Origin: an uncultured Planctomycetaceae bacterium
GTDB lineage: Bacteria > Planctomycetota > Planctomycetia > Pirellulales > Thermoguttaceae
NCBI GenBank assembly: GCA_947307005.1
Contig: CAMZHY010000001.1
Coordinates: 1-45,707 of the forward strand
Length of the DNA: 45,707 nucleotides
Direction of reading: 5' to 3'
Shown piece by piece: positions 6,831-44,147 of the stretch; the first letter of the stretch is position 1; each line of letters starts with the position of its first letter. The notes beneath the pieces are model-generated. The model saw only the letters and a list, made by a program, of their open reading frames with translations. It made no database searches and was not told where the DNA came from. The translations under genes and the position numbers were made by a program.

Positions 6831-9638
6831 TCATTCATCCTTGGAATCAGACTTTTTATCTTCTTCCTCGTTAGCTCCATCGCCATAGCCTGAACCATAA
6901 CCGGAGCCGTAACCCGCGCCATAGCCGCCGCCATAACCGTTGCCATAGCCCGCGCCATAGCCCGCGCCGTAACCCGCGCCGTAGCCGGATCCATAACCGC
7001 CGCCATAACCCGAACCATAACCAGCTCCATAACCGGCTCCATAACCGCCGCCGTAGCCGTAGCCGTAGCCGCGCCCATAACCGCCGCCATAGCCGCCGCC
7101 GTAACCTCCGCCATAGCCGCCGCCGTAGCCATAACCGTAGCCGCCGCCATAATCAGTCGAGGATTCTTCTTCAAGCGCCAGTTCGTTGTAGAAGTGGTGT
7201 TTCGCGTAAAGGTTGACTATGCACCCCAGAAGGTTTGCGCCGACTTCCGCAAGACTCCTGACGCCAGTAATAACGTCGGGACGTCCGCGGCGACGAATTC
7301 GGAAGATGTAGAAGACTCCGTCGACGCGCGGCGCGATCGACTGCGCGTCGTTTACATACAGAATCGGAGGCGCGTCGATGAGCACCACGTCGTACTTCTC
7401 GCGAAGTTCCGCAAGAAGTTGATCAAAGTTCTGACTCGCAAGAAGCTCGGCGGAGTTCTTGCGTTTCGTGCCTGACGTTACGACGTACAGGTTCTTAATA
7501 GGAGTCTCGTGCGTGGTCGAATCAATATCGGCGCTTCCTGAAAGAACGTTGGAAAGCCCCTCGTCGTTCACAAGCCCGAACCATTTATGAACGTCCGGCT
7601 TTCTCATGTCGCCGTCGATCAAAAGCACTTTCTTGCCCGCTTCCGCAACTTTAACGGCAAGGTTGGAAATACACATCGTTTTACCGTCGCCAGGGTGAGG
7701 ACTCGTGCCCATGACGATCACGCAACCGCTGCCCTTACGCTGACTAAAGAGTTTGGTGCGCACCTGACGGAAGAGTTCGCTCATTTGGTCGTTCGAATGA
7801 TAGTACGCAAAGAGCGCGGGATCGGGCAAATGAGCCTCGAGATTCTCTCGTCGCTTCTTTGGCGTAATGTCCTTGAAACGCGCCATAAAGGACGGAATCT
7901 GAACGAGTATCGGAATACGGCACGACCGAACGACTTCTGTCGGAGAGTGGAACGTCGCGTCTGTGATATCGACGAGGTACGCGATCACCACGCCAAGAAC
8001 CACGCCAAGAATGAAACCGACTGCAATGAACCGGAATAGGTTCGGATAAACCGGATTCCCGTTCGCCGTCGCCTGCGACAACACTTCAACCTGATACGTG
8101 TTCACGTCGCTCATGAGCGCAAGTTGCTTCAAACTCTGGTCCAAGCGTTCCTGCATCGATTTAAGAGATTCGATCGACAGTTTCTTCGTCTCGATCGTCT
8201 CGCGATATTCGGTAATCGCTCGAACTTCGTCGTCTTTGGCCTCGACATACGTATTGATCTTTGTCTTTTCCTCGCGCAACTCGGCCATACGCTGCTGAAG
8301 AGCGTTAATGTAAGTCTGAAGCAATTGGGGATACTTAATCAGACCGATTCGACCCGTCTCGCCTGCGGTCGATTCTCGAGACGCCTCAACTTCTTCTTCA
8401 AGGTGTTGAATCTGATCGCGAAGCGAAACAATCGTCGGGTGGTCTTCCGCTAACTGCTTCTGAGCTTCCACAAGCTTCATTTGGAGTTCGAGGAGCTTCT
8501 GCTGCATCGATCCTTCGGTTCGCGATATAATGTTCGATATCGCGATCTGCTCCGCGTCGCCGCTACCGTGAGCGGTCGATATGAGCGTGCCAAGAATACC
8601 GACGTCCTCGCCGCCGCTGATCAGCGCCATGATTTCCGTCTCGGGAATATCCTCAAAATCACGGCCAGCGATCGCCGATTCAAGCGCTTCGACTCGGTTT
8701 TCAAGCTTAAGGAGCTGGAAATCGATGTCGACCATATTTTCGCTCATCTTGACGAGCGACGTCAAAAGCGGGTTGTTCTCCTCGCTTCCAATGAAGGTGA
8801 CTTGAGACGTCTGGATAAATTCGAAAAGATCCTTCTTCTTTTCCTCGATATCCGCCTCAAGTTCCAGCTTAGAATCTTCAATCGCGGCCTTCACGTCGTT
8901 ATTCGTACGGTTGTACTTTTCCGTAAAATAAATCTGATACTGTTCGACGACCGTGTTCACAATCATCGCCGCTTCCTTCGGTTCGAGCGACTGACACGAA
9001 ATCATCAACGTGTTGGCGTCTTTAAAATCTCGCTGATCGCCGCCAATCCTGACGGAAATCATATCTTTGAGCGCGTTAATCGCTATATCATCGTTCTGCT
9101 GAATAGCTTCCGAGTTCGGATTGACCGTGCGCAACATTTTGCGCTTTTCTGGATCATTAATAATATTTCGCCACGTGTTCGCAAGAATCTGATATGACTT
9201 GACAATAATTGCGTGGGTTTCAATCTTCTCGCCGCGAAGGTTGCTTGACGTAATGCCGGCACCTCGTTCAACGCCGCTCAAAACCGACGCGGAGTTGGTC
9301 ACGGGAATGAACAAACTCGCGCTCGCCGCGTATCGCTTCGGCTGGTTGACGAAAAGGTAACCGGCGACAGCCGTCGCGGCAACCGCCATGAGAATGACGA
9401 TCCACGCTTGGCGTTCTAGAATATTGACGAAGTCGAAGAGGTTCAACTCGCGACCCACTCGCGGCGACGGCTGCAACGCGGCCGTAACCGAGCGCTGCAT
9501 CGTTTCGGAACCGCGGCGACCGCCGCGCGATTTCGATCGGGATCGCGAAGACGAAGACGCGCCTCGTTGCGCTTGCTGAGCAGAGTCTCCGACGTTTTCC
9601 GGCTTGTTGGACGTTTGATTTTCGGGATTATTAGCCAT
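6831..9638 (-). CDS. Polysaccharide co-polymerase / bacterial tyrosine autokinase (Wzc/GumC-like BY-kinase) with hyper-expanded C-terminal Tyr cluster
   Basis: Wzz-like N-terminal region with a TM helix, long coiled coil and a second TM helix. The kinase domain has Walker A GDGKT, Walker A' LLIDGDMRKP and Walker B VVLIDAPP. The tail is (G-x-G-Y)n. Confidence 0.9.
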   Translation of the reverse strand: MANNPENQTSNKPENVGDSAQQAQRGASSSSRSRSKSRGGRRGSETMQRSVTAALQPSPRVGRELNLFDFVNILERQAWIVILMAVAATAVAGYLFVNQPKRYAASASLFIPVTNSASVLSGVERGAGITSSNLRGEKIETHAIIVKSYQILANTWRNIINDPEKRKMLRTVNPNSEAIQQNDDIAINALKDMISVRIGGDQRDFKDANTLMISCQSLEPKEAAMIVNTVVEQYQIYFTEKYNRTNNDVKAAIEDSKLELEADIEEKKKDLFEFIQTSQVTFIGSEENNPLLTSLVKMSENMVDIDFQLLKLENRVEALESAIAGRDFEDIPETEIMALISGGEDVGILGTLISTAHGSGDAEQIAISNIISRTEGSMQQKLLELQMKLVEAQKQLAEDHPTIVSLRDQIQHLEEEVEASRESTAGETGRIGLIKYPQLLQTYINALQQRMAELREEKTKINTYVEAKDDEVRAITEYRETIETKKLSIESLKSMQERLDQSLKQLALMSDVNTYQVEVLSQATANGNPVYPNLFRFIAVGFILGVVLGVVIAYLVDITDATFHSPTEVVRSCRIPILVQIPSFMARFKDITPKKRRENLEAHLPDPALFAYYHSNDQMSELFRQVRTKLFSQRKGSGCVIVMGTSPHPGDGKTMCISNLAVKVAEAGKKVLLIDGDMRKPDVHKWFGLVNDEGLSNVLSGSADIDSTTHETPIKNLYVVTSGTKRKNSAELLASQNFDQLLAELREKYDVVLIDAPPILYVNDAQSIAPRVDGVFYIFRIRRRGRPDVITGVRSLAEVGANLLGCIVNLYAKHHFYNELALEEESSTDYGGGYGYGYGGGYGGGYGGGYGGGYGRGYGYGYGGGYGAGYGAGYGSGYGGGYGSGYGAGYGAGYGAGYGNGYGGGYGAGYGSGYGSGYGDGANEEEDKKSDSKDE
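6885..7151 (-). repeat. Coding tandem repeat (GGC/GGN-TAT units) encoding an 89-aa GYG tract
   Basis: ccataaccgcc/ccatagccgcc-type units are visible on the + strand. Translation gives 25 Tyr by my count, all flanked by Gly, Ala or Ser. Confidence 0.9.
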
Positions 9639-11123
9639 GTGCCTTACCTGACTTTACTTAAACTGACGAGCGATCGGCGAAGACGACGTAAAACGCCGCC
9701 CTTAGCGCTATCTGACGTTTTCAAACTTTTATCGTTTCAGGAAGATTAAAAGCTTCCCAAAAAAATCTCTAACGCCATAGCTTTTCGGGACGACTGTCAA
9801 ACTTTGTCCGGTCTCTATCAACTCAATTCTCGGGAAAAATCCATCTTTCCCCAAAGGCGAAACAACCGTCAAGAGTATAATCAAAGGTCCGTTTTAAGAA
9901 AAGAGCGGTTTTAATCGGATTTAACTATTGATATGTTAAAATTTTATAGTTAGCGAAAAAAGGTTGTTTATATATTTTACAACAACATAAATACAATAGT
10001 AATAATAGGCGCTTATTATTGGCATGATTCTTGTAGAAGAATTTTAAACAAGCGAGTTTAAAGAAAAAATAACACCAAAATAAATATATTATTAAAAAAT
10101 TTCTAATAAAATACTTTACATAATATATTAAATATAAATAAACAATAGTGGATTTGTAAAAAAATATCGTCGCACAGAAATTTTTATTTTTTCTGAAAAA
10201 ATATCGTCCATCGCGTAAGAGAACCCACAATCTCCTCCTTCGTGTTCGGAGAACTACATTTTCCACTCCGATAAAACGAGGCTTCATCGATCTGATAAAA
10301 CTCTCCTATCTTACTGGACGGCATTCAGTTTGAACAGTTCAATCCAGCTGTAAATCTTCGCGCGTATTAACGCTCGGCTAATTTGAGCGCTTTCAATCAG
10401 ATCGGTTGCTTCTGTTAAGATCAGACGATGTTAAAAAGGCTGACAAAACAACTTAAACATCTATCGGAATTACTAACTATTTATCAAAATTCAAATCTTG
10501 AATTCGAGCGCGTTAAGAACAATTCTACTAATAGAAGTATAGTAATTTTCGTATGTTAAGTTATTATAACGACAATCCGAACGTTTTAAACAAAGCGTCT
10601 TCCAAATGTCTATATAGATTATAACTTCCGATCCATTCGCACATTACTATGTTTTGGATTCAAAACGCCGCCCAGCGTCTCCATCGCTGACTATCGCGAC
10701 AAGATCAATTCTAAAACGCCGCGAGGAATTATTCAATTTCGATAATCAATATTATTACTCGGGCCGTTACGAACGACCGCGCTCATCATTGTCATTCCGA
10801 CGAGCATCGCTCGCGCGACGTCGTGAAAGCTTCTAGAGAAAACAACCTTACATGGGCATTACTATGAGGAGCAACAATTCAAAAGCGCCGCGTCTCAACG
10901 TCGACATGCGATTTCCCTGCGTTATTCGCCGCAAAGACAGAATAGGTCGCCCTAAATTAAGAAATAACGTCGCAAAAACAGGAAAGAGGCCGTCAATTCG
11001 CGCAAAACAAACAAAGACAGAGCAGACGGCTATGAAGTCAGCTAAACGTAGACCGCTTAACTTAAAACCACTTGAAACTCAAGACGTCGATCAGAGAAAG
11101 GGAATTCTTCGTCTTGACGTCGC

Positions 11124-11155
11124 AATAAAAAACGCGAATGAGCCGACCCGCTCAT
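11124..11155 (-). terminator. Putative terminator downstream of the GY-rich protein gene
   Basis: On the minus strand, stem atgagc/gctcat with a 6-nt loop is followed by tcgcgttttttatt. Confidence 0.4.
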
Positions 11156-11269
11156 ACAAAAGGAAAGAACGAAGAGAGGAACATCGCTTGCGAATATTCC
11201 TCTCAACGTCCATTTTCCTGTTGGCTCGAGTCTGAGCTCAGTCCCGTTCGGCTGAGGAGCGAAGGAGAC

Positions 11270-11881
11270 TCATTCGGCATGCTTACTGGCGGTAGCCAGC
11301 GGAATCGCGATAGCGCATGCGATAGCGGCGCCGATCAAAGCGAAACTTCCAATGGACATGCCGCCCAAAGCGCCGCCGCCAAATCCGCCGCCGTATCCGC
11401 CGCCATAACCCGCGGCGTCGTAGGACGGAATCGAACCGGGAACGTCAGCCGGATAAGTCGGCGTTCCATAGTTCTGAGTGGGAACGCCACGAGCGGGGGC
11501 AACGTTCTGGGCGTTCGGATTGTAGACCTGAAGTCCATCGCGGTCGAGGACGAGGTCGACGGAACCGTTATTATTTCCATCGGCGTCTTGCGCGAAAACT
11601 TCAGTCGTGATAGAGCCAAAATAACCGGTCGAGGGCTGCTCGGCCGAAACGAAATAAGTTCCAGGCTCGAGTTCGCTAATCGTCACGCCTTCGCCTTCAG
11701 CGGCGCTGACCGTATCTTCGGCAACCTTATTGCCGTTAAGATCCATGACGGTATAGTGAATATCCTGAGACGGAGCGACGCCGTCCGAGGTACGAGAGAG
11801 GAAACGAACCTGATTCGCCTGAGCGACGGCGATGAACGCCAGAACTGCAACGCAGACGATCGCGCCAATAATCTTTTTCAT
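11270..11881 (-). CDS. Exported protein with carboxypeptidase-regulatory-like beta domain, GYGGGYGGGFGGG tract and C-terminal hydrophobic anchor
   Basis: Signal peptide MKKIIGAIVCVAVLAFIAVAQA, an LEPGTYFVSAE motif, and a C-terminal G/Y tract followed by the helix SIGSFALIGAAIACAIAIPLA. The overlapping + strand 283-aa ORF is R/S-rich and judged a shadow. Confidence 0.75.
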   Translation of the reverse strand: MKKIIGAIVCVAVLAFIAVAQANQVRFLSRTSDGVAPSQDIHYTVMDLNGNKVAEDTVSAAEGEGVTISELEPGTYFVSAEQPSTGYFGSITTEVFAQDADGNNNGSVDLVLDRDGLQVYNPNAQNVAPARGVPTQNYGTPTYPADVPGSIPSYDAAGYGGGYGGGFGGGALGGMSIGSFALIGAAIACAIAIPLATASKHAE

Positions 11882-12275
11882 GGTTTCACCAATCCTTCAA
11901 AATTCCTATGCGTTATACGCTATTTAGCCGAACAAGTACGCAGGAAAGTACTCCCACCCACTTTTCGACCTATTTTAACTAGGGACTAATAAAAATCAAC
12001 ACGGTAAACGACTTTTTTTCTTAATTTCTCTAAAAAATCGGTATGTTTGGTTTTACTAATCAATAAACGCTATATATTGTGTAAATTAACAAAATAAATT
12101 AACTCAAAAGTCAAAACAACCTTTCGAATTCTAGCCGAGTAGTTAAATCATACCGTAACGATCTTTGATTCACCTCCCCCTTAAAGGATCAAGATCACTA
12201 TGTAAGAATTTATTTTCCATAAACTTATAAAACAAAACAATCGATAGCCTTCAAATTGACAAAATAAAGCCGCCG

Positions 12276-12884
12276 CTACCTATCGTCGCTCTTTCTTAAC
12301 GCTCTCTTCAACCTTTCAACGACATAAGACAACTCGTTCGCAACAGGCGATTCCCTTCGCTTTAAGACGTCTAAAACGGAATCGTAAAACCACGCCTGCG
12401 AATCGGGACCCGCTTTAAATTTTGATAGAATATCGTCTTCGTTAAAAAGCGTGAAACTCCTAAGGAGCGACGTCGCGTTGTCAAGCTTGTCGCACGCGCT
12501 CACAAGAAGCGCGCCTGGATCGCAACGTTCCATTCTCGCAAGGTACTTCTCTTTACGTTCGCGCCACGGAGCCTTACGGGTCGCGTCGGACGCGGTCGAA
12601 TCGGAAACGTCTAAAACAATGGCGGCGACCGCGTCGCCAAATTCTTCGCGAACGCGTTCTAACGCGGCCATCCCCCCGCAATCCTCGACAACGTCGTGAA
12701 GAAGCGCCGCAATCGCCACGTTCTCCGAGGCTCCGTAATCGAGCGTCAATCCCGAAACGCGCAAAAGATGCGAGAGATACGGAACGTCGCCGTTTTTTCT
12801 TTTTTGTTCGCGATGCGCGTCCGACGCAAATTTTAACGCCGCGTCGTAACGATCGGTCAAAGTCCCGGCTCCAAATCGTTCCAT
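12276..12884 (-). CDS. HD-domain (p)ppGpp-hydrolase-like protein (RelA/SpoT hydrolase-domain-only, small alarmone hydrolase type)
   Basis: FASDAHREQKRKNGDVPYLSHLLRV...AALLHDVVEDCG is the RelA/SpoT HD signature. There is no synthetase domain. Confidence 0.85.
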   Translation of the reverse strand: MERFGAGTLTDRYDAALKFASDAHREQKRKNGDVPYLSHLLRVSGLTLDYGASENVAIAALLHDVVEDCGGMAALERVREEFGDAVAAIVLDVSDSTASDATRKAPWRERKEKYLARMERCDPGALLVSACDKLDNATSLLRSFTLFNEDDILSKFKAGPDSQAWFYDSVLDVLKRRESPVANELSYVVERLKRALRKSDDR

Positions 12885-15714: not shown

Positions 15715-18219
15715 TTATTCGTCGGCGGCGCGCGTTCCTAGCCGTATAGGAAAAATAAGCCTCGTTACGACGGTGCGTTTTGCGGCGACGCGTTCAGACG
15801 AGCCGTCGGAATGGGAGCGCGACAAAGTCGCTTCCGAAGCCGTAAAATCGGGACTTGTACCGTAAAGGCCGTATTTCTCGAGCGTTTCCGCCTTAACGTC
15901 TCGATATTCCTCGCCATTTTGCGCCGCCAGTTTCTTATTCAGTCGCTCAAGCTCGATCGCGTCGAAAGAAAGTCGCGACAAATCCTCAGTGGGGCGGTAT
16001 TTTTCACAATCGGGATCGACGACGACTCCAAAAACGACGGCGCGACCGCAACGTAATAATTCGCTCAAGTCGACTTCTCGTTGCAATCTCTTCTCGATTC
16101 CAAAGTTATCCACGCCGCCGGCAAAATCGTAGAACGTCGCGGAACGTAAAATATAAGGCAGGCGTTCCGAAGCGGAATTATACGTTGTGGAGTCCCACGT
16201 CGCCGCTCGTTCAGAAGGAATTGAACTTCGATGTTCGTTTATAACGCGCATTGGCTCGACGCGAGCCGCGCCGCGATCGATCTTTGTTTCTCCAGGAGGA
16301 AGAACGCCGAGCGCGCACGCGCCGCCCTTGTAGACGATATACGCGGAGTAAATCGGCGCGTCGAAAGGATTGACGATCGTTCCGCGAAGACTCAGCCCGT
16401 CGTCGCTCAGCTCAAGCGGCGCGGGAAGATTAGTCGCCGAGCCAATCCAACTCGCGACAAAACTCTTACTCGAACGGGTCGCCATTGGAACGTCGCGAAT
16501 CGAGTCTCCTTCGAGTCGGTAAGGTTTGTTCCATTGCCTTGGAATAAACGTTTTTTGTTCCGAGCCTCCAAGTCCGGAACCTGATAAAGCGAGAGGAGCC
16601 GCGATCCCCGACGCTCCGTCCGCAAGTTCAAGCCCGGCGATTCTCGGTTTGAATTTTACGTCGTAACGCTCTCCCATCGGAGAATAAACGCCAAACCAAG
16701 AAATATCGCGAACAATCCCGGACGCCATGTCCACGTCGAGTAAATCCAATTGATTAAACGTTTCCTCTTTTGGAGTCCTCGTTTTAAAAATCGCGACGGC
16801 TATTACGCTGAAAAGAACGACGAAAATCGGAAACGTCGTCCAGGTGATCATCGGTCGCTTAAAAACCTTCTTCGCGAGAAACCAATCGACGGGCGCAATA
16901 ACGACGACGTACGCAAGAAGAAGAACGCCGACAAGCGCGAAGGGAACGGGACGAACGGAGTCAAATCGATCAAGCGCGCTGCGAATCTGCCCCGAATAAT
17001 CGACATAGCCGCGCCGAACGGAGTTAGAAGCTCCGGTTTTTAACACGGGCGCGTCAGGATCAATCCCCAAAATTTTGAGCATAAGGCGACCGCGTCCGGA
17101 CCAGTTGGCGATTGGCGCTTCGGCGAGATCCGCGGCAAAGAAAACGACGGAACCTAATCCGACTGCGCGCGTTACGAGAATCGGCGTTTCCGCTTCCCGC
17201 ATTTCAACGATCGCGTCGCTTTTTAACTCCGAAAGAACCGGCGTTTGGAGAAACGGGTTTGACCGAGATCCGGTCATCGCGAGATTCTTAACGTTTTGCA
17301 ACTCGCTAGACAACGCGTTGACAACGCGAAATTCATGCGTCTTCGGTTCGACGGTCGCGCCGGGACTCAACTCCGAAAACGCGCCGTCGCGTAGAAGGTC
17401 TATCGAGTTTTTACCGGCAAAAAGAACAACCCGTCCGCCGTTTTCCACCCATCGATAAATGGCGGCGAATTGACTCGAACGAGCGTCGTATCCATCGTAA
17501 AGAGAAACGTCGGTCGTTGTAAGGAAGATGCGATCGATCGCTTCAAGAGAACGAAAATCAGTCGGAAATTGTTCAATCGTCTTGATAGAAACAATTTCCG
17601 GGCGCCTCTCGTCTTTAAGACGCAACTCCGCAAAGGCCTCGGAAAATCCAGCTTTTACGTCGCCGACGACTAAATAAATCGGTTTAGAGGGATTGGCGGG
17701 AGAGCCAAAAACAACGTTTTCGCCGTCGTTGCGTCGCGCGCCCGGTTCAAAAACTTGTTCGTCGACAATCTCTTCTCCAACGATAAGACGAACCGTTAGT
17801 TTCTCCGACGCTTTGGGAAGGATAAATCCGACTTCAGCGCGACCTGCCGCCGTCTCTTCCGGCGTAGTCTTACGACGCGACGAAAAAGGAACGCCGTCGC
17901 TGTCTCGCGTTTCCAACTCAATCGTGGGAGACGTCTCCGCCGCGTTGAAAAAAACAACGATCCGCGTCTGAAATCCATTCTTATATATTCCGCCGATTCC
18001 AACGTTTAGGCCGGAAATTCTCCCCTTCTCTCCAAAATCGCGCCCAGTCGGCGCGTCTACAGCGACGTCTAGATCGCGCGGTTCGACAATGTCCGCAAAA
18101 CTTAGCGCGCCAAGTAAGACGACGTTAATCGTAAGAAGAAGCGTTAAAAATAACGCTCGCAGCATTAATCGTCGTTTATTTCGACTTAGAATCATATTCC
18201 TAACTTCCCGATCGTACAA
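15715..18219 (-). CDS. Large membrane protein of unknown function (N-terminal anchor, two central TM helices)
   Basis: 834-aa ORF with the likely ATG start at 18195 (MILSRNKRR). It has a hydrophobic N-terminus and central helices LVGVLLLAYVVVIAPV and TTFPIFVVLFSVIAVAIF. No domain was recognised with confidence. Confidence 0.8.
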   Translation of the reverse strand: MYDREVRNMILSRNKRRLMLRALFLTLLLTINVVLLGALSFADIVEPRDLDVAVDAPTGRDFGEKGRISGLNVGIGGIYKNGFQTRIVVFFNAAETSPTIELETRDSDGVPFSSRRKTTPEETAAGRAEVGFILPKASEKLTVRLIVGEEIVDEQVFEPGARRNDGENVVFGSPANPSKPIYLVVGDVKAGFSEAFAELRLKDERRPEIVSIKTIEQFPTDFRSLEAIDRIFLTTTDVSLYDGYDARSSQFAAIYRWVENGGRVVLFAGKNSIDLLRDGAFSELSPGATVEPKTHEFRVVNALSSELQNVKNLAMTGSRSNPFLQTPVLSELKSDAIVEMREAETPILVTRAVGLGSVVFFAADLAEAPIANWSGRGRLMLKILGIDPDAPVLKTGASNSVRRGYVDYSGQIRSALDRFDSVRPVPFALVGVLLLAYVVVIAPVDWFLAKKVFKRPMITWTTFPIFVVLFSVIAVAIFKTRTPKEETFNQLDLLDVDMASGIVRDISWFGVYSPMGERYDVKFKPRIAGLELADGASGIAAPLALSGSGLGGSEQKTFIPRQWNKPYRLEGDSIRDVPMATRSSKSFVASWIGSATNLPAPLELSDDGLSLRGTIVNPFDAPIYSAYIVYKGGACALGVLPPGETKIDRGAARVEPMRVINEHRSSIPSERAATWDSTTYNSASERLPYILRSATFYDFAGGVDNFGIEKRLQREVDLSELLRCGRAVVFGVVVDPDCEKYRPTEDLSRLSFDAIELERLNKKLAAQNGEEYRDVKAETLEKYGLYGTSPDFTASEATLSRSHSDGSSERVAAKRTVVTRLIFPIRLGTRAADE

Positions 18220-23398: not shown

Positions 23399-24139
23399 AT
23401 GACCTCTCGGAATATCAGTCGGAATACGGTTGAAGCAATAGTTCGCCAGCTTCTGCGAGAAACGAACGGTTCTAAAGAAGGAGTCGTCGACGCGATTGTC
23501 GCCGCTTTTTCAGAGGGGGGCGCGGTTTCCGCTCCTAAGCCTGTCGAGGCGGTTAAGCCTCGCAAATCTGAGCTTGTCGTCAGTATCTCCGCGCGACATA
23601 TCCATTTAACCGACGCCGACGTTGAAACGCTTTTTGGAAAAGGCGCGAAACTCACCAAAATGAAGGATCTGTATCAAGACGGTTTCTTTGCGGCGAACGA
23701 GACGGTTATGTTAATTGGACCGCGTCGCAGAATGCTTCCTTCCGTTCGTATTCTTGGACCGACGCGTAAGGAGTCGCAGGTCGAGCTTTCTTTTACCGAC
23801 GCGATTTCTCTAGGGTTGGATCCTCCCGTTCGCGAGAGCGGCAAACTTGAAGACACCCCTGGGTGCGTTCTTGTCGGACCCGCCGGCGTCGTCGAGTTGA
23901 AGCGCGGCGTCATTCGCGCGGCGCGACACGTTCATATGGGGCCGGAAGACGCCGCTTATTACGGCGTTAAAGACAAGGAAATGATGAAGTTGCGCGTCGA
24001 GTCGGGCGTTTGCAGCGTAGTTCTTGAAGACGTCCTTGTTCGGATCGGCAAGAATATTAAGCTTGAAGTTCATCTTGACACAGACGAGGGAAACGCTGTT
24101 GACCTTGAACACGCGACGAAGATTGAACTGATTAAATAA
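23399..24139 (+). CDS. pduL: PduL-type phosphotransacylase with N-terminal encapsulation-peptide-like helices
   Basis: Two PduL repeats (SARHIHL.., AARHVHM..). The ~55-aa N-terminal extension holds amphipathic segments [11 protein letters not shown] and VVDAIVAAF. Confidence 0.92.
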
Positions 24140-24290
24140 AGACGCAATGGATTGCGCGCGTGAGTTTCACGGACGTAATCAATCGATATAAAACTAACCA
24201 AAAACAAAGGAAGAGTCGCGCGCGACGCGTTAAACGCTAGAGTTTTCCACGTTGCCGCGACGTAGCCCGCCAGTATTGGGAGATTTGATA

Positions 24291-24584
24291 ATGCAAGCGC
24301 TGGGTATTCTGGAAGGAAAAGGGTTCGTTACCCTGTTCGAAGCTGTCGACGCTATGATGAAGGCGGCGAACGTTCAGTTCCTCGGCTGGGACAAGCCGGG
24401 TAGCGGAATCGTGACCGTTTACGTTACGGGCGACGTCGCGGCTGTTAAGGCCGCCACCGACGCCGGGGTTGCGGCGGCTTCTCGTATTGGCGAAATCAGC
24501 GGCGTTCAGGTTATTCCGCGTCCGAATAACGACGTTGAGAAGGTTCTGCCGCAGATCAAGAAAGCGGCGGCTGCGAGCAAGTGA
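24291..24584 (+). CDS. BMC-H shell protein (Pfam00936 single domain)
   Basis: [28 protein letters not shown]...[20 protein letters not shown] lies 8 nt before ATG 24291; the track ORF begins at an upstream TTG. Confidence 0.93.
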
Positions 24585-24687
24585 GATTCTGAAAACGAAT
24601 CTCGATGTTCGTTAAGGAACGGCGACGCGTTGGTCGACCGTTGAGCGAATAAAGAAATAACGAAAGCGCTATATTGAGGATATAAAG

Positions 24688-24957
24688 ATGAACGACGCTA
24701 TTGGATTGATTGAAACGAAAGGCGTTCTTGCTCTGGTTAGCGCGTCCGACGCAATGGCTAAGGCTGCGGACGTGGAGATTGTTAAACGTATTCAGATCGG
24801 CGGCGGTTTTATGACGACGATCGTTCGCGGCGACGTTGGCAGCGTTCGCGCTGCGGTCGACGCTGGCGCCGCAGCCGCCGAGGCGTGCGGCGAGCTCAAA
24901 GCGGCGCACGTGATTCCTCGTCCGTCCGCCGGTTTGATCGAAGCGTTTACCGCTTGA
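24688..24957 (+). CDS. BMC-H shell protein (PduA/EutM-like)
   Basis: IGLIETKGVLALVSASDAMAKAADVEIV...VRGDVGSVRAAVDAG. Confidence 0.95.
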   Translation: MNDAIGLIETKGVLALVSASDAMAKAADVEIVKRIQIGGGFMTTIVRGDVGSVRAAVDAGAAAAEACGELKAAHVIPRPSAGLIEAFTA

Positions 24958-25066
24958 AATTCCGACAGAAGGTTCGCTTAAGAGCGTTTTTTCTTCGATA
25001 TTTCAAACACGCGTTGACGTCGTCGACAGCGACGGCGTCGGCGCTGTTGGCGGAGCGCCGAGTAAA

Positions 25067-26254
25067 ATGAAAATTCTGGTTGCAAATTTAGGTTCGACGA
25101 GCTTTAAGTATAGTCTTTACGACATGGACGACGAACGTCTCATGGCGAAAGGACGAGTCGAACGTATTGGCGAAGAGTCGAGTCCGTGTCAAATCGTTAT
25201 CGGCGATTATAAGAAGGAAGAGAACGTTTCCGCGCCCGATCATGGCGTCGCCGTGCGAGAATGTCTCCGTCAGTTGACCGACTCGGAGAACGGCTGTCTC
25301 AAGGACGCCTCCGAAATTGCCGGCATTGGCTTTAAAGCCGTGTTCGCAAACGGATATTCGGGGGTTCAACCTGTAACGGACGAGCTTCTCGCGGCGATGG
25401 AAGAATTTAACGCCGTTTTGCCGGCGCATAATCCTCCCTATGTTCGCGCGATGCGAATGCTTCGCAAGGCTCTCCCTGAGATTCCGCTTGTCGCCGCCTT
25501 TGAGACGGGATTTCACGAAAACATTCCCAATCGCAACCGTTACTACGGCGTTCCCTTCGAATGGGCGGAAAAGTACGGCGTTCGACGGTACGGGTTTCAC
25601 GGAGCGAGCCATCGCTATATTGCGACGCGTTGTCGTGAACTTTTCGGCGTCGATCGACGTATTGTGAGCTGTCACCTCGGCGGTTCGAGTTCCGTTTGCG
25701 CGATCGCCGACGGCATGAGCCGCGCGTCGAGCATGGGCGGCAGTCCTCAGACGGGCCTAATGAACAACAATCGTTGCGGCGATTTTGACCCGTTCTGGTG
25801 CAACTATCTTATCAAGAAGCTCAATATTTCGTTTGACGAGCTTCTCTCGATTCTTGCGACCAAGAGCGGTTTGCTCGGCGTTAGCGGCGTCAGCGGCGAC
25901 GTTCGAGATATTGCCGAGGCGCGCGACGCGGGTAATGAACGCGCTAAACTAGCGCTTGAGGTTCTTGTCGGCGACGTTCGACGCTATATCGGCGCGTCGC
26001 TTATGGAACTTGGCGGCGCGGATATGATTTCCTTCACCGGCGGAATCGGCGAATTTCGCGACGACGTTCGAGAGAAGGTTCTCGAAGGACTCGACGAACT
26101 CGGGATTACGTTGGATAAGGAAGCAAACTCAAAAACGTTTGGCGTGGAAGCGAAAATTAGCGCTCCCAGCAGTCGCATAGAAGTTTGGGTCGTGCCAACG
26201 AACGAGGAAATCATCGTCGGTCGTCAGACGAAAGCGTTGCTGGAAAAACGTTAA
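25067..26254 (+). CDS. ackA: Acetate/propionate-family kinase
   Basis: MKILVANLGSTSFKY, GFHGASH and the TNEE motif; 395 aa. Confidence 0.95.
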   Translation: MKILVANLGSTSFKYSLYDMDDERLMAKGRVERIGEESSPCQIVIGDYKKEENVSAPDHGVAVRECLRQLTDSENGCLKDASEIAGIGFKAVFANGYSGVQPVTDELLAAMEEFNAVLPAHNPPYVRAMRMLRKALPEIPLVAAFETGFHENIPNRNRYYGVPFEWAEKYGVRRYGFHGASHRYIATRCRELFGVDRRIVSCHLGGSSSVCAIADGMSRASSMGGSPQTGLMNNNRCGDFDPFWCNYLIKKLNISFDELLSILATKSGLLGVSGVSGDVRDIAEARDAGNERAKLALEVLVGDVRRYIGASLMELGGADMISFTGGIGEFRDDVREKVLEGLDELGITLDKEANSKTFGVEAKISAPSSRIEVWVVPTNEEIIVGRQTKALLEKR

Positions 26255-26302
26255 AGCACGTTCTTCTTCGCGCGGCGTCAGACTCTTCTAGAAGGCTAAA
26301 GA

Positions 26303-26608
26303 ATGTTTATCGCGAAAATCGTCGGGTCGTTGGTTTCGACGCAGAAGACGGGTTCGATGGTTGGATCGAAGCTCATGATGATCGAGCCTTACGTCGTCGA
26401 TCCTCAAACGCGCGATCGTTTTAAGACGACGAGCCGTTCCTTAGTCGCGGTCGATATAGTCGGCGCCGGCGAGGGCGATTTTGTGCTCGTTGTTCAGGGT
26501 TCTAGCGCGCGTATGACGCCGGAAACAAAGTCTCTTCCAGTGGACTGCACGATTATTGGCGTCATCGACACGGTGACGCTTGATCGGCGGAACGTTCCTC
26601 TTGAATAG
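26303..26608 (+). CDS. BMC-P pentameric vertex protein (EutN/CcmL family), copy 1
   Basis: MFIAKIVGSLVSTQK...VDIVGAGEGDFVLVVQGSSAR; 101 aa. Confidence 0.9.
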   Translation: MFIAKIVGSLVSTQKTGSMVGSKLMMIEPYVVDPQTRDRFKTTSRSLVAVDIVGAGEGDFVLVVQGSSARMTPETKSLPVDCTIIGVIDTVTLDRRNVPLE

Positions 26609-26760
26609 ACGAGCGGTTTGCGTCTGGCGGACGATCTTTATAAAGAATACTAGCGGAAGAAATGGCGTCTCGGCGTTCAAATAGGTTGCGACGGCGGTTG
26701 GTCGTTGACAAAGACGAGCTTCGAGGATCGCGTTCCTTCTTTCACAGGAGTGAGAATAAA

Positions 26761-28218
26761 ATGGCGGAAGTTAGCGAAGCGCTAGTACGAAGCGTGCTTC
26801 AGGAAGTTATGTCTCGACTTGGCGGATCCGCGTCTGCGACAAGCGCGCTTGGCGGCGGGGTCGCGCCCAAGAGCTATGCCGGTCGATATGGGGTTTTTGA
26901 CGATCCGAACGAAGCAATCGAGGCCGCGAACGAGGCGTACGATCAACTTTCTCGCTGCAAAATCGCCGACCGAAAGAAGATGATCGACGTCATCCGACGC
27001 ATTTGTATTGAACAGAGCGTCGAGCTTGGAACGAAAGAACTGGAAGAAACGAAGATCGGTCGTCTTGAGCATAAGATCGACAAGCTTTTAAACGTCGGTT
27101 ACAACGCGCAAGGCGTCGAGGCGTTGAGTTCGGAAGTTTTTAGCGGCGACTATGGACTGACGGTTATCGAGCACGCGCCCTTTGGCGTGATTGGCGCGAT
27201 TACGCCGAGCACCCACTCTCTTCCGACGATCGCAAACAACTCGATCAACATGATCGCGGCCGGCAACACGGTTGTTTTCAATCCTCACCCGCACGCCTGT
27301 AAAATCGCCGCCGAGGGCGTCAAGCGTTTTAACCAAGCGATTTACGCGGAGTTTGGAATTGACAACTTGATGTGCGTCATTCCTCAGCCGACTCTCGAAA
27401 GCGCGGACGTTATCTTTAAGCATCCCAAGATCAATCTCTTGGTGGTGACCGGCGGCGAAGGCGTCGTTAAAGCCGCGATGGCGCAGTCGAAACGCGCGAT
27501 CGTCGCGGGACCGGGCAACCCGCCGGTCGTCGTCGACGAGTCCGCCGATTTGGACCGCGCGGCGAAGTCGATTATTCTCGGCGGCGCGTATGACAACAAC
27601 CTGCTCTGCCTTGCCGAAAAAGAAGTGTTTGTCGTCGAATCCGTCTTTGACAAGATGATGGACGCGATGGAACGCGCGGGCGCGATTCGTTTGAACGCCG
27701 CGGAGACCGCCGCGATGACTCAGCGCGGGATCGTTCAGGTGGGCGAAGGCGACAAACGCCATGCGGCGCCGAGTCGCGAATTCCTCGGAAAAGACGCCGC
27801 CGTCCTCGCGGCGGGAATTGGCAAGAGCGTTCCGAAAGACGTCGAGATGCTTTACGGCGAGACGGACTACGAAAACCCGTTCGTGCCCGTCGAGCAGATG
27901 ATGCCGTTCCTTCCGTTTGTTCGTTGCCGCAACGTCGACGAAGCGATTCAACGCGCTTACGAGATGGAACACGGCTTCCATCATACGGCGATTATTCACT
28001 CAAATAACGTCGTTAATATGACCAAGATGGGCAAGTTGCTCAATACGACGATATTTGTGAAGAACGGTCCGAGCACGGCTGGAAACGGCGGCGGCGGTGA
28101 AGGGTACGGATCTTATTCGATTGCGGGTCCGACTGGAGAAGGCATAACGCGCCCGTTGACCTTTACGCGCAGTCGTCGTTGCGCGATGGTCGACAGTCTC
28201 CATATTCTTGGTCGATAA
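26761..28218 (+). CDS. CoA-acylating aldehyde dehydrogenase (PduP/EutE-like) with N-terminal encapsulation peptide
   Basis: Catalytic-Cys context NNLLCLAEKE and N-terminal amphipathic EALVRSVLQEVMSRL. AGGAG precedes ATG 26761. The upstream extension in the track ORF is R-rich. Confidence 0.93.
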   Translation: MAEVSEALVRSVLQEVMSRLGGSASATSALGGGVAPKSYAGRYGVFDDPNEAIEAANEAYDQLSRCKIADRKKMIDVIRRICIEQSVELGTKELEETKIGRLEHKIDKLLNVGYNAQGVEALSSEVFSGDYGLTVIEHAPFGVIGAITPSTHSLPTIANNSINMIAAGNTVVFNPHPHACKIAAEGVKRFNQAIYAEFGIDNLMCVIPQPTLESADVIFKHPKINLLVVTGGEGVVKAAMAQSKRAIVAGPGNPPVVVDESADLDRAAKSIILGGAYDNNLLCLAEKEVFVVESVFDKMMDAMERAGAIRLNAAETAAMTQRGIVQVGEGDKRHAAPSREFLGKDAAVLAAGIGKSVPKDVEMLYGETDYENPFVPVEQMMPFLPFVRCRNVDEAIQRAYEMEHGFHHTAIIHSNNVVNMTKMGKLLNTTIFVKNGPSTAGNGGGGEGYGSYSIAGPTGEGITRPLTFTRSRRCAMVDSLHILGR

Positions 28219-28256
28219 AACTGTTGAAATTGCGTTTGTAGCGACGCGATGAAATA

Positions 28257-28293
28257 TCCGGCGCGCGATTTTGCGTCTCGCGCCGGACGTTTT
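28257..28293 (+). terminator. GC-rich hairpin plus short T-run after the aldehyde dehydrogenase gene (internal attenuator/terminator candidate)
   Basis: ccggcgcg (28258-28265) pairs with cgcgccgg (28279-28286). The stem extends to ~12 bp with one mismatch and is followed by acgtttt. Confidence 0.5.
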
Positions 28294-28343
28294 GAAGTTG
28301 GGAACAGTTTCTTTGTGGTTTTGACAACAACACAATCAAGACG

Positions 28344-28883
28344 ATGAACATCGGCAATTTTGAATGGGAAGTGTTCCGCCACTCGATTCACACCTTTAAC
28401 TGGTGGGAAGCGGGGATGGCGAGCTTCTTTATCATTGCCGGACTTGTTTCCATTAAATGGACGAAAAAGACGGGGTCGGTTGACGGGAAGAGCGTTAACG
28501 CTCTTTTTTGCCTTCTTCTTGGCTCGATAATGGGGTTGGCGTTTAAGCTTTTCGCGTACCTCGACGTGACGGTTCTTTTGCACGCGGCCCTTGTCGTCGT
28601 CTTTTTCCTCGATTTTAAGAAAACTAGAGATATTCGAAATCGACTCCTTAAAGCGGAAGACGCGCTCAACATAAAAAAGCGGCGCGATTCTCTTATAGGA
28701 GGCGTTAAGTCGACCGGTCGCGCTGACGCTTCAAGAGAGCATAGAGAGCATTCTCATTCGCATTCTCATCATTCGCATCATCATCATGAACGCGGACGCT
28801 CTCATTCGTCCGATCATGATTCGGACGCGTCGGCGAAGGAGCCAAAGAATCCTATCCACGACGATCCTTTGACGGACGAATAA
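28344..28883 (+). CDS. Small 3-TM membrane protein with His-rich C-terminal tail, function unknown
   Basis: Hydrophobic segments ASFFIIAGLVSI, ALFCLLLGSIMGLAFKLFAYL and VLLHAALVVVFFL. The tail reads HREHSHSHSHHSHHHHERGRSHSSDHD. Codon usage resembles neighbouring genes. Confidence 0.65.
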   Translation: MNIGNFEWEVFRHSIHTFNWWEAGMASFFIIAGLVSIKWTKKTGSVDGKSVNALFCLLLGSIMGLAFKLFAYLDVTVLLHAALVVVFFLDFKKTRDIRNRLLKAEDALNIKKRRDSLIGGVKSTGRADASREHREHSHSHSHHSHHHHERGRSHSSDHDSDASAKEPKNPIHDDPLTDE

Positions 28884-28900
28884 AAGACGAAAAGACGGCG

Positions 28901-29185
28901 ATGAATCGCGCCCGTATTATTGGTTACGCGACCTCCGTGGTTAAACACGAGTCGCTTGTTGGACAGAAGATGTTAATCGCTCAGCCCGTAACGACCGACG
29001 GCAAGCCTGAAGGCGATCCTTCGATCGTTTACGATAAACTTGGCGCGGGCGTCGGCGATCTCGTCCTGATAACGAGCGACGGTTCCTTTACGCGAACTGA
29101 GATTATTGGGACGAAACTAACGCCCGCGCGTTGGGCGATTGTGGGAATTATCGATTCGGTTAAGAAATCGGACGCGGAAGAATGA
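28901..29185 (+). CDS. BMC-P vertex protein (EutN/CcmL family), copy 2
   Basis: MNRARIIGYATSVVKHESLVGQKMLIAQP...GAGVGDLVLITSDGS; 94 aa. Its stop overlaps the next start (ATGA). Confidence 0.9.
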   Translation: MNRARIIGYATSVVKHESLVGQKMLIAQPVTTDGKPEGDPSIVYDKLGAGVGDLVLITSDGSFTRTEIIGTKLTPARWAIVGIIDSVKKSDAEE

Positions 29186-30009
29186 ACGGATTGGATTGGG
29201 ACCTGGACGCTTTGGTCGGCGCGATCATGTCCGATCTCCGGGGACGTTCTCCCGTCGCGTCCGCCGAAAACGTTAGCGAGACGCTGTCTCGCGATTTTGC
29301 GGACGCTCGACGGTCGTTGAGCCAGCCGACGAAAGAACCGACCGTTTTTGACGTCGACGAGCGCGTCGTTGTTCGTGAGACCGTCGTCAAACTCGCGTCG
29401 ACGACTAAGTTGAAGGTTTGGCGTCTTCGCGGCGACGTTGTGGCGACCCCCGCCGCTTACGACGAGCTCGCCAGTCGAGGAATCAGCGTTATTCGCGCAG
29501 GTCGCAGCGACGTGAAATCGCCGACGCCCTCCCCTTCCCCGGCGCGCGCGACCCTTTCCGCGTCAAACGCCGCGGATCGGGAATCCGCGAAAGCGTTTAA
29601 GACGGACCAAGAGACTTCGAAATCCGCCTCGCGAGCGCAGGTCCTTTTGGCGACTTGTTTGCCGGAAAATGAACGCGCCCCTCAGGGAATTGTCGAATAC
29701 TTAAAACGCAACGCGGAATTCGTCGAAGAGCGCCTTGACTGCATGAAGAAGACGACGGAATTGGTCGCCGACTCTCTTGCGGCGAACGACGCGCTGAAAG
29801 TCGTTATTGCGACGCGCGACGGAGCGGTCGGGTGCGTTTGGGCAAATCGCAAAAAAGGCGTTCGCGCCGTCGTCGCCGTGACGGTCGAACAGGCGAAGCG
29901 CGACCTTGCGGCGACGAACGCCAATACGCTGATTTTGGATCCTCGCGACGTTGGACCTTATCAGGCGCGTCAGATTGTCGACTTCTTCACGCGAATGGGA
30001 CGAAGGTGA
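29182..30009 (+). CDS. BMC-associated protein: N-terminal amphipathic helix, S/P-rich linker, C-terminal degenerate RpiB/LacAB-like domain
   Basis: The C-terminus KVVIATRDGAVGCVWANRKKGVRAVVAVTVEQAKRDLAATNANTLILDPRDVGPYQARQIVDFF is colinear with the RpiB segment ILICGTGVGISIAANK..GIRA..HND.NVL..G.RV.G...A..IV. The alignment is from memory. Confidence 0.75.
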   Translation: MNGLDWDLDALVGAIMSDLRGRSPVASAENVSETLSRDFADARRSLSQPTKEPTVFDVDERVVVRETVVKLASTTKLKVWRLRGDVVATPAAYDELASRGISVIRAGRSDVKSPTPSPSPARATLSASNAADRESAKAFKTDQETSKSASRAQVLLATCLPENERAPQGIVEYLKRNAEFVEERLDCMKKTTELVADSLAANDALKVVIATRDGAVGCVWANRKKGVRAVVAVTVEQAKRDLAATNANTLILDPRDVGPYQARQIVDFFTRMGRR

Positions 30010-30013
30010 GACA

Positions 30014-30445
30014 ATGCGCATAGGTCAAGTCATCGGCAAGGTTGTGCTTAACCGCGTTCATCCGTCCATGATTGGAGCGCAGTTTAAGATAGTCGCACCG
30101 CTGACGTTTAACGATCTGGCGGAGCCCGATCCGCTTGAGTCCGCCCGGAGCGTCGGCGACGACGAGAACGAGCGCGGACTTGATCACGCCGCGCAGGTGG
30201 CGGCGGCGACGAATCGTCTCGCGAATCAGACGATTCCTCGACAGCGTGGAAACGAAATCGTCGTTTACGACGATTGTTCGGCCGCGATTGGAGAATGGCT
30301 CGCGTTTAGCGAAGGCGCCGAGGCGGCCGCCGCGTTTGGCGTGGAAAATCCTCATCCGGTCGACGCGTTTGGCGGCGCGATCATCGACAACGTCGAGATT
30401 GACGCCCAAGTCGTCGCGGAACTTGCGGCGATGAAGAATAAGTAA
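30014..30445 (+). CDS. BMC-P vertex protein (EutN/CcmL family), copy 3, with ~50-aa internal insertion
   Basis: MRIGQVIGKVVLNRVHPSMIGAQFKIVAPL then an insert, then EIVVYDDCSAAIGEWLAFSEG. GAAGGTGAG lies upstream of ATG 30014. Confidence 0.8.
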   Translation: MRIGQVIGKVVLNRVHPSMIGAQFKIVAPLTFNDLAEPDPLESARSVGDDENERGLDHAAQVAAATNRLANQTIPRQRGNEIVVYDDCSAAIGEWLAFSEGAEAAAAFGVENPHPVDAFGGAIIDNVEIDAQVVAELAAMKNK

Positions 30446-30455
30446 GATAGCGCCG

Positions 30456-30483
30456 TCTTTTTCGTTCCTGAGAACGAAAAAGA
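30456..30483 (+). other. Perfect 12-bp stem / 4-nt loop hairpin in the BMV3-aldolase spacer
   Basis: tctttttcgttc ctga gaacgaaaaaga. No downstream U-tract on either strand. Confidence 0.7.
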
Positions 30484-30627
30484 AAAGACTATAGAAAACG
30501 GACGTTTTGGACGTGTTCATAGTAGAGCGGCGTTTCCAAGATAAATAGAGCGTTTTGATAATCAACGAGACGCGGCTGCGGCGACGCGGCGAACGTCGTG
30601 AAGTTATAAAAGCAAAAGGAACGGCAT

Positions 30628-44062: not shown

Positions 44063-44147
44063 GCGGGCGTGGCGGAATTGGCAGACGCGTCAGGTTGAGG
44101 GCCTGATGGGAGTTAATCCCGTGGAGGTTCGAGTCCTCTCGCCCGCA
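44063..44147 (+). tRNA. tRNA-Leu (anticodon GAG), type II with long variable arm
   Basis: Acceptor stem GCGGGCG/CGCCCGC, anticodon stem TCAGG/CCTGA with loop TTGAGGG, variable-arm stem GGGA/TCCC and T-loop GGTTCGAGTCC. No CCA is encoded. Confidence 0.93.

Follow-up and report, generated by a model that had tools for sequence, protein, structure and literature searches.

In Escherichia coli Wzc, dephosphorylated subunits of the bacterial tyrosine kinase (BY-kinase) assemble into an octamer, in which each C-terminal tail lies in the active site of the neighbouring subunit (PMC9800525). Disassembly depends on the overall phosphorylation level, about four phosphotyrosines (pY), and polymer length is timed by how long the assembled state lasts relative to the dissociated one (PMC9800525). 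In the Wzc model, phosphorylation runs from the C- to the N-terminal end as a ratchet along YxY motifs; the pocket for the tyrosine at position i-2 rejects phosphotyrosine, and when i-2 is not a tyrosine, the tail is disordered and less phosphorylated (PMC9800525, PMC11986026). Model BY-kinases carry 2-7 tail tyrosines, at the low end of the range, and one sentence in the main BY-kinase review acknowledges that these tyrosine clusters (Y-clusters) vary. Here, we analysed a BY-kinase gene located on the minus strand at positions 6831..9638 of a 45,707-nucleotide stretch of DNA from an uncultured Planctomycetaceae bacterium of the Thermoguttaceae lineage (contig CAMZHY010000001.1 of GenBank assembly GCA_947307005.1, positions 1 to 45,707; the whole stretch is called the window below). 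The encoded protein ends in a Gly/Tyr tract with 25 tyrosines. On balance, we lean towards the reading that this tract is a Y-cluster expanded by unit duplication within a flexible, almost uncharged tail, and that it would serve as a multisite autophosphorylation substrate which lengthens or tunes a Wzc-type assembly cycle.

The last 107 residues of the kinase read DYGGGYGYGYGGGYGGGY...GSGYGSGYGDG-ANEEEDKKSDSKDE. The cluster begins 20 residues past the last strand of the kinase domain, and the tract (aa 829-921, 6876..7154, minus strand) consists of 25 Y, 54 G, 6 A, 4 S, 2 D, 1 R and 1 N, i.e. 58% Gly and 27% Tyr with zero Gln. An earlier note on this DNA had counted about 25 tyrosines in 89 residues at window positions 6885-7151; translation of the open reading frame (ORF) reproduced both the count and the coordinates exactly (Tyr830 to Tyr918). 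Given 2.5% Tyr in the remaining protein, 25 Tyr in 93 residues corresponds to a binomial tail of 7e-19. Successive tyrosines are 4 residues apart in 20 gaps and 2 residues apart in 4 gaps, with YxY islands at 834-838 and 858-862 and GxGY units in the remainder. The acidic tail which the same note had placed after the tract is present as well, as a charged C-terminal end, ANEEEDKKSDSKDE (aa 922-935, 6834..6875, minus strand, net charge -4). In front of the tract lies the linker LYAKHHFYNELALEEESST (aa 810-828, 7155..7211, minus strand), a KHxFYNE motif followed by an acidic stretch; it is conserved in all orthologue tails, and its residues K813, Y817 and N818 are invariant in alignment A2. At the DNA level, Tandem Repeats Finder reported periods of 12, 24 and 36 nt with matches of just 72-75%, codons are mixed (GGC 34, GGT 14, GGA 5 and GGG 1; TAT 16 and TAC 9), and the longest exact direct repeat measures 20 nt. 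From this, it can be inferred that the pattern is conserved in the protein and degenerate in the DNA.

By its sequence and its predicted structure, the protein carrying this tail is a full-length Wzc-type membrane BY-kinase, with the fold and all motifs intact. The gene is complete in the ORF list (935 aa, stop codon at 6831-6833) and of the polysaccharide co-polymerase PCP-2a class. NCBIfam TIGR01007 ("polysaccharide biosynthesis tyrosine autokinase") matched with 145.6 bits against a cut-off of 108 (1.4e-42), and Pfam detected Wzz at aa 64-158 (1.9e-6, above cut-off), GNVR at aa 499-554 (2.9e-4, below cut-off) and AAA_31 at aa 650-762. E. coli Wzc was the closest PDB sequence match (1.6e-35 over aa 436-813); BceF, CapA/B, VpsO and Etk were matched too. 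In Foldseek, the AlphaFold2 model matched full-length Wzc with E about 1e-26 to 6e-28, and its kinase domain, which has a predicted local distance difference test score (pLDDT) of ~90, aligned with CapAB (4jlv) at a TM-score of 0.95 and a root-mean-square deviation of 1.7 A. All of this agrees with the identification of a Wzc-like kinase bearing Walker A, A' and B motifs made in the earlier note. The catalytic parts, all on the minus strand, comprise Walker A (GTSPHPGDGKT, aa 644-654, 7677-7709), Walker A' (VLLIDGDMRKP, aa 671-681, 7596-7628), Walker B (VVLIDAPP, aa 751-758, 7365-7388) and, in helix alpha-2, the oligomerisation motif ExxRxxR (O-motif; ELFRQVR, aa 621-627, 7758-7778). A KKRR (RK-rich) juxtamembrane patch is also present. 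Distant homologues all share E621, K653, D675, D677 and D755, and at least 90% of them keep R627 and P757/P758. In an ungapped HMMER alignment to Wzc, the tyrosine pocket of the latter (A534-P536, P645-L647, E675, S679) corresponds to P647-H648-P649, P758-I759-L760, D788 and G792, and all of these residues except I759 are invariant among close orthologues. With the catalytic and pocket residues present, autophosphorylation most probably takes place on the tail.

The remaining parts of the protein are arranged as in PCP-2a/P-type BY-kinases, i.e. Walker motifs, ExxRxxR, a C-terminal Tyr cluster and two transmembrane (TM) helices flanking a Wzz/GNVR domain were all found. The N-terminus is cytoplasmic and is followed by TM helix 1 (aa 79-96, 9351..9404, minus strand; hydrophobic WIVILMAVAATAVAGYLF, AlphaFold2 helix 78-97), the periplasmic polysaccharide co-polymerase domain (aa 98-535, 8034..9347, minus strand), TM helix 2 (aa 535-556, 7971..8036, minus strand; FRFIAVGFILGVVLGVVIAYLV, AlphaFold2 helix 534-558), and the kinase domain (aa 600-812, 7203..7841, minus strand, placed by motif positions and pLDDT), which is cytoplasmic together with the tail. 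The periplasmic domain, recognized as Wzz/GNVR by Pfam and aligning to Wzc structures, is built of long helices (AlphaFold2: 220-277, 288-323, 362-395 and 436-511). Both ends of the chain (aa 1-65 and 813-935) were modelled with pLDDT ~30 and lack secondary structure, and are thus predicted to be disordered.

We then turn to the evidence that the tail is genuine and has been maintained. The protein collection does not contain the window protein, and lists its relatives under the names Thermoguttaceae or Planctomycetia. Species-representative genomes, scanned with an alignment of nine close sequences, yielded 18 orthologous loci of 51-84% identity, all in metagenome-assembled genomes (MAGs) from rumen, omasum and human or animal gut. 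Counted from the end of the kinase domain, the window tail has 27 Tyr, and the syntenic orthologues (about 15 species-level gut and rumen Thermoguttaceae MAGs) have 14-32 Tyr in 88-144 aa. Each complete orthologue carries the KHxFYNE-acidic linker, a YGYGY island soon after it, a long Gly/Tyr tract and an acidic patch right behind the last Tyr. Orthologues also use a Tyr spacing of 3, and none of the spacings 2, 3 or 4 is conserved. The sole exception among the complete orthologues is locus L021, in which an in-frame stop leaves a tail of 10 Tyr in 41 aa. In this Thermoguttaceae MAG (3.2-Mb contig, 12400-12800), GY repeats and the acidic end run on in the same frame beyond the stop, and the sister sequence P0226 is without it; the stop is either a real truncation or a sequencing error. 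Judged from these genomes, a clade of gut and rumen Thermoguttaceae has kept the Gly/Tyr tail at the protein level. Since long tracts are kept over 51-84% protein identity while the DNA repeat is degenerate, selection appears to act on the composition of the protein.

That the tract could be an artefact of assembling or sequencing a repetitive region is extremely improbable. Such repeats do break assemblies: the contigs of L002, L009, L010 and L014 end inside the tract, L008 has a run of Ns, and two database proteins are frameshifted. However, the window ORF crosses the tract without a frame break and reaches the acidic end typical of the clade, the longest exact DNA repeat is merely the 20 nt given above, and independent assemblies from many hosts show the same architecture.

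The earlier note had further expected the repeat to be prone to length variation, and near-identical strains indeed differ by whole YG or GxGY units, in data that all come from metagenome assemblies. One cluster of proteins sharing at least 90% identity contains full-length forms that are 908, 924 and 948 aa long; their bodies are almost identical, and they differ by blocks of 16 or 24 aa, i.e. 4 or 6 GxGY units. A second cluster contains forms of 931, 935, 937 and 939 aa, which differ by YG or GxGY units. Tail differences in both clusters are whole-unit insertions or deletions plus a few single substitutions. Between the forms of 924 and 948 aa there is a 72-nt insertion; adjacent 72-nt blocks of the longer form, whose longest exact repeat is 42 nt, match in 67/72 positions, which points to a near-tandem duplication.

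Variation of this kind might indicate that the expansion is largely neutral, so that the proximal YGYGY island alone works and the distal GxGY units are tolerated products of slippage or duplication. This is consistent with the drift of unit number between species (14-32 Tyr) and strains, with the unconserved spacing, with the stop in L021 after about 10 Tyr, and with independent expansions in other BY-kinase lineages, where the units are (YG)n or (KYGYG)n. Nevertheless, long tracts occur in all complete orthologues apart from L021, across 51-84% identity and over degenerate DNA; charged residues are almost excluded from the tract and yet always stand behind it; and the frame is kept over a repeat of ~280 nt. 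We therefore regard neutral expansion as unlikely, though it deserves to be kept in mind.

To place the tail within the wider family, the best 150 of 48,112 50%-identity representatives (E <= 1e-10) were surveyed for their longest contiguous Tyr tract. The median was 8 Tyr, with up to 22 outside the clade of the window; 15 of these representatives had at least 15 Tyr, 6 had at least 20, and a single one, representing the clade itself, had 25. Tails of 19-22 Tyr belong for example to P0047, P0079 and P0121. In addition, a metagenome scan with the pattern (YGxG)6Y matched at least 80 loci, and among the 80 matches listed, at least 38 are BY-kinase C-termini with (YG)12-22 tails, containing 13-23 Tyr in 25-45 aa. 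The premise of the earlier note that Y-clusters normally hold only a handful of tyrosines thus stands for the model enzymes, but not for the family as surveyed here. Tyr-dense tails proved to be common, and we found no paper that characterises them. Tracts of ~90 aa with at least 25 Tyr were confined to the clade of the window, both among the best 150 representatives and among the metagenome matches listed. On the strength of these predicted proteins, Tyr-dense tails are widespread in uncultured BY-kinases and have several origins with different units, namely (GxGY)n, (YG)n and (KYGYG)n. What is particular to the clade is the ~90-aa tract, its Gly spacing, the near-absence of charge and the genomic context.

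Several of the tails encountered in these searches deserve mention in their own right. The (YG)n kinases of the metagenomes (loci L042-L118, e.g. L052, L064 and L093) have kinase domains 28-39% identical to that of the window and end in an acidic and then a basic stretch; they seem to represent an independent and apparently common expansion of the Y-cluster. P0171 (328 aa) consists of a kinase domain without a transmembrane activator and carries a (KYGYG)7 tail with 21-24 Tyr, a third, lysine-bearing type of unit. Tracts of (GGGY)n were found in L091, L096 and L066, in small secreted PPPPPPCC-repeat proteins and in a DEAD-box-helicase-like protein (assigned by eye), where the tract is N-terminal; as these are not kinases, this type of repeat is not kinase-specific. 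A protein search with the tail alone returned just small GY-rich hypothetical proteins without domains and was uninformative on BY-kinases.

Finally, we examined the genes around the kinase. On one side it is accompanied by genes for a HAD hydrolase, RibBA, RNase Y (rny) and ribosome recycling factor (frr), and on the other side by those for a 203-aa secreted protein, an HD_4 protein, a PCMT-domain protein, an ABC ATPase, ApbE and DnaN. Orthologous loci preserve the order ABC - PCMT - ... - kinase - frr - rny, and all complete ones adjoin frr and rny. The earlier note had called the kinase an orphan, as it saw no polysaccharide genes nearby, and this holds more strongly than originally claimed. 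Domains of Wza, Wzb/LMW-PTP, CpsB, glycosyltransferases and polymerases were absent from ORFs of at least 150 aa in the 45.7-kb window, and a six-frame motif search of the window found no LMW-PTP signature. Using Wza, CpsB, Wzy and GT4 probes from two planctomycete cassettes identified by Pfam, tblastn detected none of these genes in the window and none within 10 kb in any of the 21 orthologous loci. On the contrary, Wza is located directly upstream in 14 of the 20 loci with distant Planctomycetota BY-kinases (L022-L041, 2-12 Tyr), and Wzy, GT4 or a PHP-type CpsB phosphatase usually follows downstream. Given 0/21 against 14/20, the missing polysaccharide cassette is a conserved, clade-specific departure, and not merely a reflection of loose operon structure in planctomycetes. 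It should be noted that in the BY-kinase literature "orphan" refers to a kinase domain without transmembrane activator (PMC4007543), which is not the case here.

The uniform lack of a cassette in these 21 loci, set against the distant loci with Wza, would also fit a kinase that has left polysaccharide control altogether and uses its tail as a substrate buffer or docking scaffold, competing with or recruiting substrates or phosphotyrosine-binding partners. Phosphorylation of other proteins by BY-kinases is documented (PMC4007543). However, the complete periplasmic co-polymerase domain and both TM helices are retained and model well, which argues for continued work with an envelope machine, and the conserved neighbourhood shows no obvious candidate for a substrate or reader protein. 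Such a role seems very unlikely to us.

With these observations in hand, the reading of the tract as an extended autophosphorylation substrate can be spelled out as follows. By analogy to the Wzc model, a ring would form, and each tail would be phosphorylated in trans by the neighbouring subunit. The process would probably start at the distal end, by the acidic patch, and move towards the kinase domain; the patch behind the last Tyr could mimic an "already phosphorylated" C-terminal neighbour and in this way start phosphorylation distally. Negative charge would then accumulate until the ring opens. The distal GxGY units might provide extra steps (a longer fuse or a rheostat) and place charge far from the ring interface, and the proximal YGYGY island would be the site of ratchet-type, ring-breaking phosphorylation. 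The number of units would set the duration of the assembled state, or the delay before disassembly, and gain or loss of units in strains would tune it. The kinase may control either a polysaccharide machine whose genes lie in another part of the genome or other substrates.

Several points weigh against this reading. Of the 24 Tyr-Tyr gaps, 20 are YxxxY (and YxxY also occurs in orthologues), not the YxY suited to the Wzc ratchet and its i-2 pocket; it is thus doubtful that an ordered ratchet could operate over the full tail, phosphorylation may be distributive, and that of the distal tail may be slow and unordered. No Wza, Wzy or phosphatase partner to which the proposed timer could be coupled is visible around the gene. 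If the stop after about 10 Tyr in L021 is real, the distal units would be dispensable. Furthermore, unit counts from short-read assemblies are uncertain, with several MAG contigs breaking or shifting frame within the repeat, and phosphorylation of the tail in this protein and its relatives is a prediction.

Another possibility is that the tail is mainly a device for assembly or exclusion and not a counter. Unphosphorylated tails would stick to one another by Tyr-Tyr contacts, and perhaps by Arg-Tyr contacts to the N-terminus, forming a membrane-proximal gel, or a cluster of kinase rings, that dissolves on phosphorylation. The N-terminus in question (aa 1-62, 9453..9638, minus strand) is cytoplasmic, Ser/Arg-rich (12 S, 8 R; net +6) and predicted to be disordered (pLDDT ~33). 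It is likewise S/R-rich in orthologues of at least 60% identity (net +5 or +6) and acidic (net -7) in the long-tailed P0038 group. Relatives within the close clade retain this basic extension; more distant BY-kinases lack it or have an acidic N-terminus instead. Co-evolution of the S/R-rich N-terminus with tail length was considered and rejected: the correlation is rho 0.24-0.44 overall and gone below 50% identity, and the P0038 group is a counter-example.

Proteins of the FUS type assemble through Tyr stickers together with Arg stickers supplied by other regions of the protein, and their assembly is weakened by phosphorylation. The earlier note had likened the tract to eukaryotic [G/S]Y[G/S] low-complexity domains, and the likeness holds as far as its 24 such triplets and predicted disorder are concerned, but not in composition: with 58% Gly and no Gln, the tract is not FUS-like, and with no Gln, 4 Ser and 1 Asn, it lacks the Q/S/N/G-rich make-up of prion-like domains. 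In favour of self-association, the triplet-rich disordered tract is almost uncharged, the same protein has a basic cytoplasmic N-terminus kept in the close clade, and a tail of 90 residues could be long enough to contact subunits that are not adjacent, or other rings. Hajredini and co-authors, in a 2022 review (PMC9800525, section 4), put forward as a speculation worth testing that ordinary Y-clusters, when unphosphorylated, adopt a gel-like, phase-separated state which would exclude the phosphatase. On the other hand, the literature searched gave nothing beyond this speculation for any BY-kinase, the composition departs from FUS-type domains as stated, the N-terminus of the P0038 group is acidic, and N-terminal charge is uncorrelated with Tyr number outside the close clade. 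We consider such self-association distinctly unlikely. A still more far-reaching version, to which we give a lower chance, is that the kinase has been uncoupled from the polysaccharide cassette and that its ~90-residue Gly/Tyr polymer, Arg/Ser N-terminus, active site and pocket could together make up a membrane-attached, ATP-driven network that phosphorylation dissolves. If true, bacteria would possess their own version of Tyr/Arg-sticker condensates, one that includes its writer enzyme and in which a fast-evolving number of units sets a material threshold.

The rest of the window offers some further observations. The kinase gene is preceded by a 1.6-kb gap (9639-11269) with an AT-rich core (9650-10850, 25-40% GC vs 52% in the window). 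The 570 bp by the start codon are 69% identical to the corresponding region of L003 and L004, and the AT-rich core is not conserved. An Rfam search of the window found only a tRNA (44063-44147, plus strand) and nothing in the gap, and promoter and terminator scans, which bear on co-transcription of the kinase gene with frr, gave only weak consensus matches. The 203-aa protein (11270-11881, minus strand) has a signal peptide and a C-terminal GYGGGYGGGFGGG followed by a hydrophobic anchor; its sole domain match is a sub-threshold type 9 secretion system (T9SS) type A sorting domain. A 283-aa ORF on the opposite strand (11138-11989, plus strand), considered as a divergent partner, is probably spurious, as orthologous loci have their gene called on the kinase strand; the signal peptide on the antisense 203-aa ORF speaks against it too. 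Three large ORFs are without Pfam or NCBIfam match: 15715-18219 (minus strand, 834 aa), 33700-35463 (minus strand, 587 aa) and 38268-40913 (plus strand, 881 aa). The first of them adjoins the ABC ATPase gene, and unannotated genes for 829 and 811 aa occupy the same position in L001 and L003. Further on, at 23399-31515, genes for phosphate propanoyltransferase (PTAC), acetate kinase, aldehyde dehydrogenase, an RpiB-like protein and a class II aldolase form a cluster of the type typical of planctomycete bacterial microcompartment loci. Beyond it there are genes for a prolidase-type M24 peptidase, 5-formyl-THF cyclo-ligase, a CDP-alcohol phosphatidyltransferase and a BNR-repeat protein.

Neither the family nor its general mechanism is new. 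In the literature searched, we found no paper on tails of such size, on their repeated origin, on strain-level unit polymorphism or on a link to loss of the Wza cassette. Large expansions of the Y-cluster have arisen repeatedly, with (GxGY)n, (YG)n and (KYGYG)n units, and are not described in the same literature. Current BY-kinase models, with a threshold of ~4 pY, a C-to-N ratchet along YxY and a timer of chain length, rest on enzymes with 4-7 tail tyrosines. The clade of the window, belonging to the little-studied polysaccharide degraders that are the rumen and gut Thermoguttaceae (new isolates of the family are reported in PMC11929135), offers 14-32 Tyr, natural alleles differing in unit number alone, and no adjacent polysaccharide genes. 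It is thus a natural series for three questions: does the number of Tyr determine how long the assembled state lasts, is YxY spacing required by the ratchet, and do unphosphorylated tails associate with one another?

Compared with known systems, the kinase is most akin to E. coli Wzc (K30, K-12), with which it shares the order of cytoplasmic N-terminus, TM helix 1, periplasmic domain, TM helix 2, P-loop kinase and Tyr tail, as well as the Walker motifs, ExxRxxR and most pocket positions. While the Wzc tail has 5-7 Tyr in ~15-20 residues, mostly as YxY, and Wzc dissociates at ~4 pY, the window protein has 25 Tyr in 89 residues, mostly as YxxxY; and while the wzc gene lies with those of Wza and Wzb in a capsule locus, the window gene lies beside frr and rny without such genes. 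The kinases of the Planctomycetota Wza-BYK-(CpsB)-Wzy-GT4 cassettes (L022-L041) resemble it in domain organisation, phylum and YG-rich tails followed by polar or charged ends, but they are only 22-37% identical, their tails contain 2-12 Tyr in 27-84 aa, and 14 of the 20 have Wza directly upstream. The (YG)n kinases of the metagenomes, Bacteroidota-like in the style of their sequences, share with it a large and independent expansion of the Y-cluster (at least 38 found, 13-23 Tyr), yet theirs is pure YG in a YxY register, packed into 25-45 aa. FUS-family low-complexity domains and Gly/Tyr-rich structural proteins likewise have many [G/S]Y[G/S] triplets in a disordered segment; there is, however, no homology, and the tract of the window protein, with its 58% Gly, no Gln and few Ser, is tethered to its own tyrosine kinase and to the membrane.

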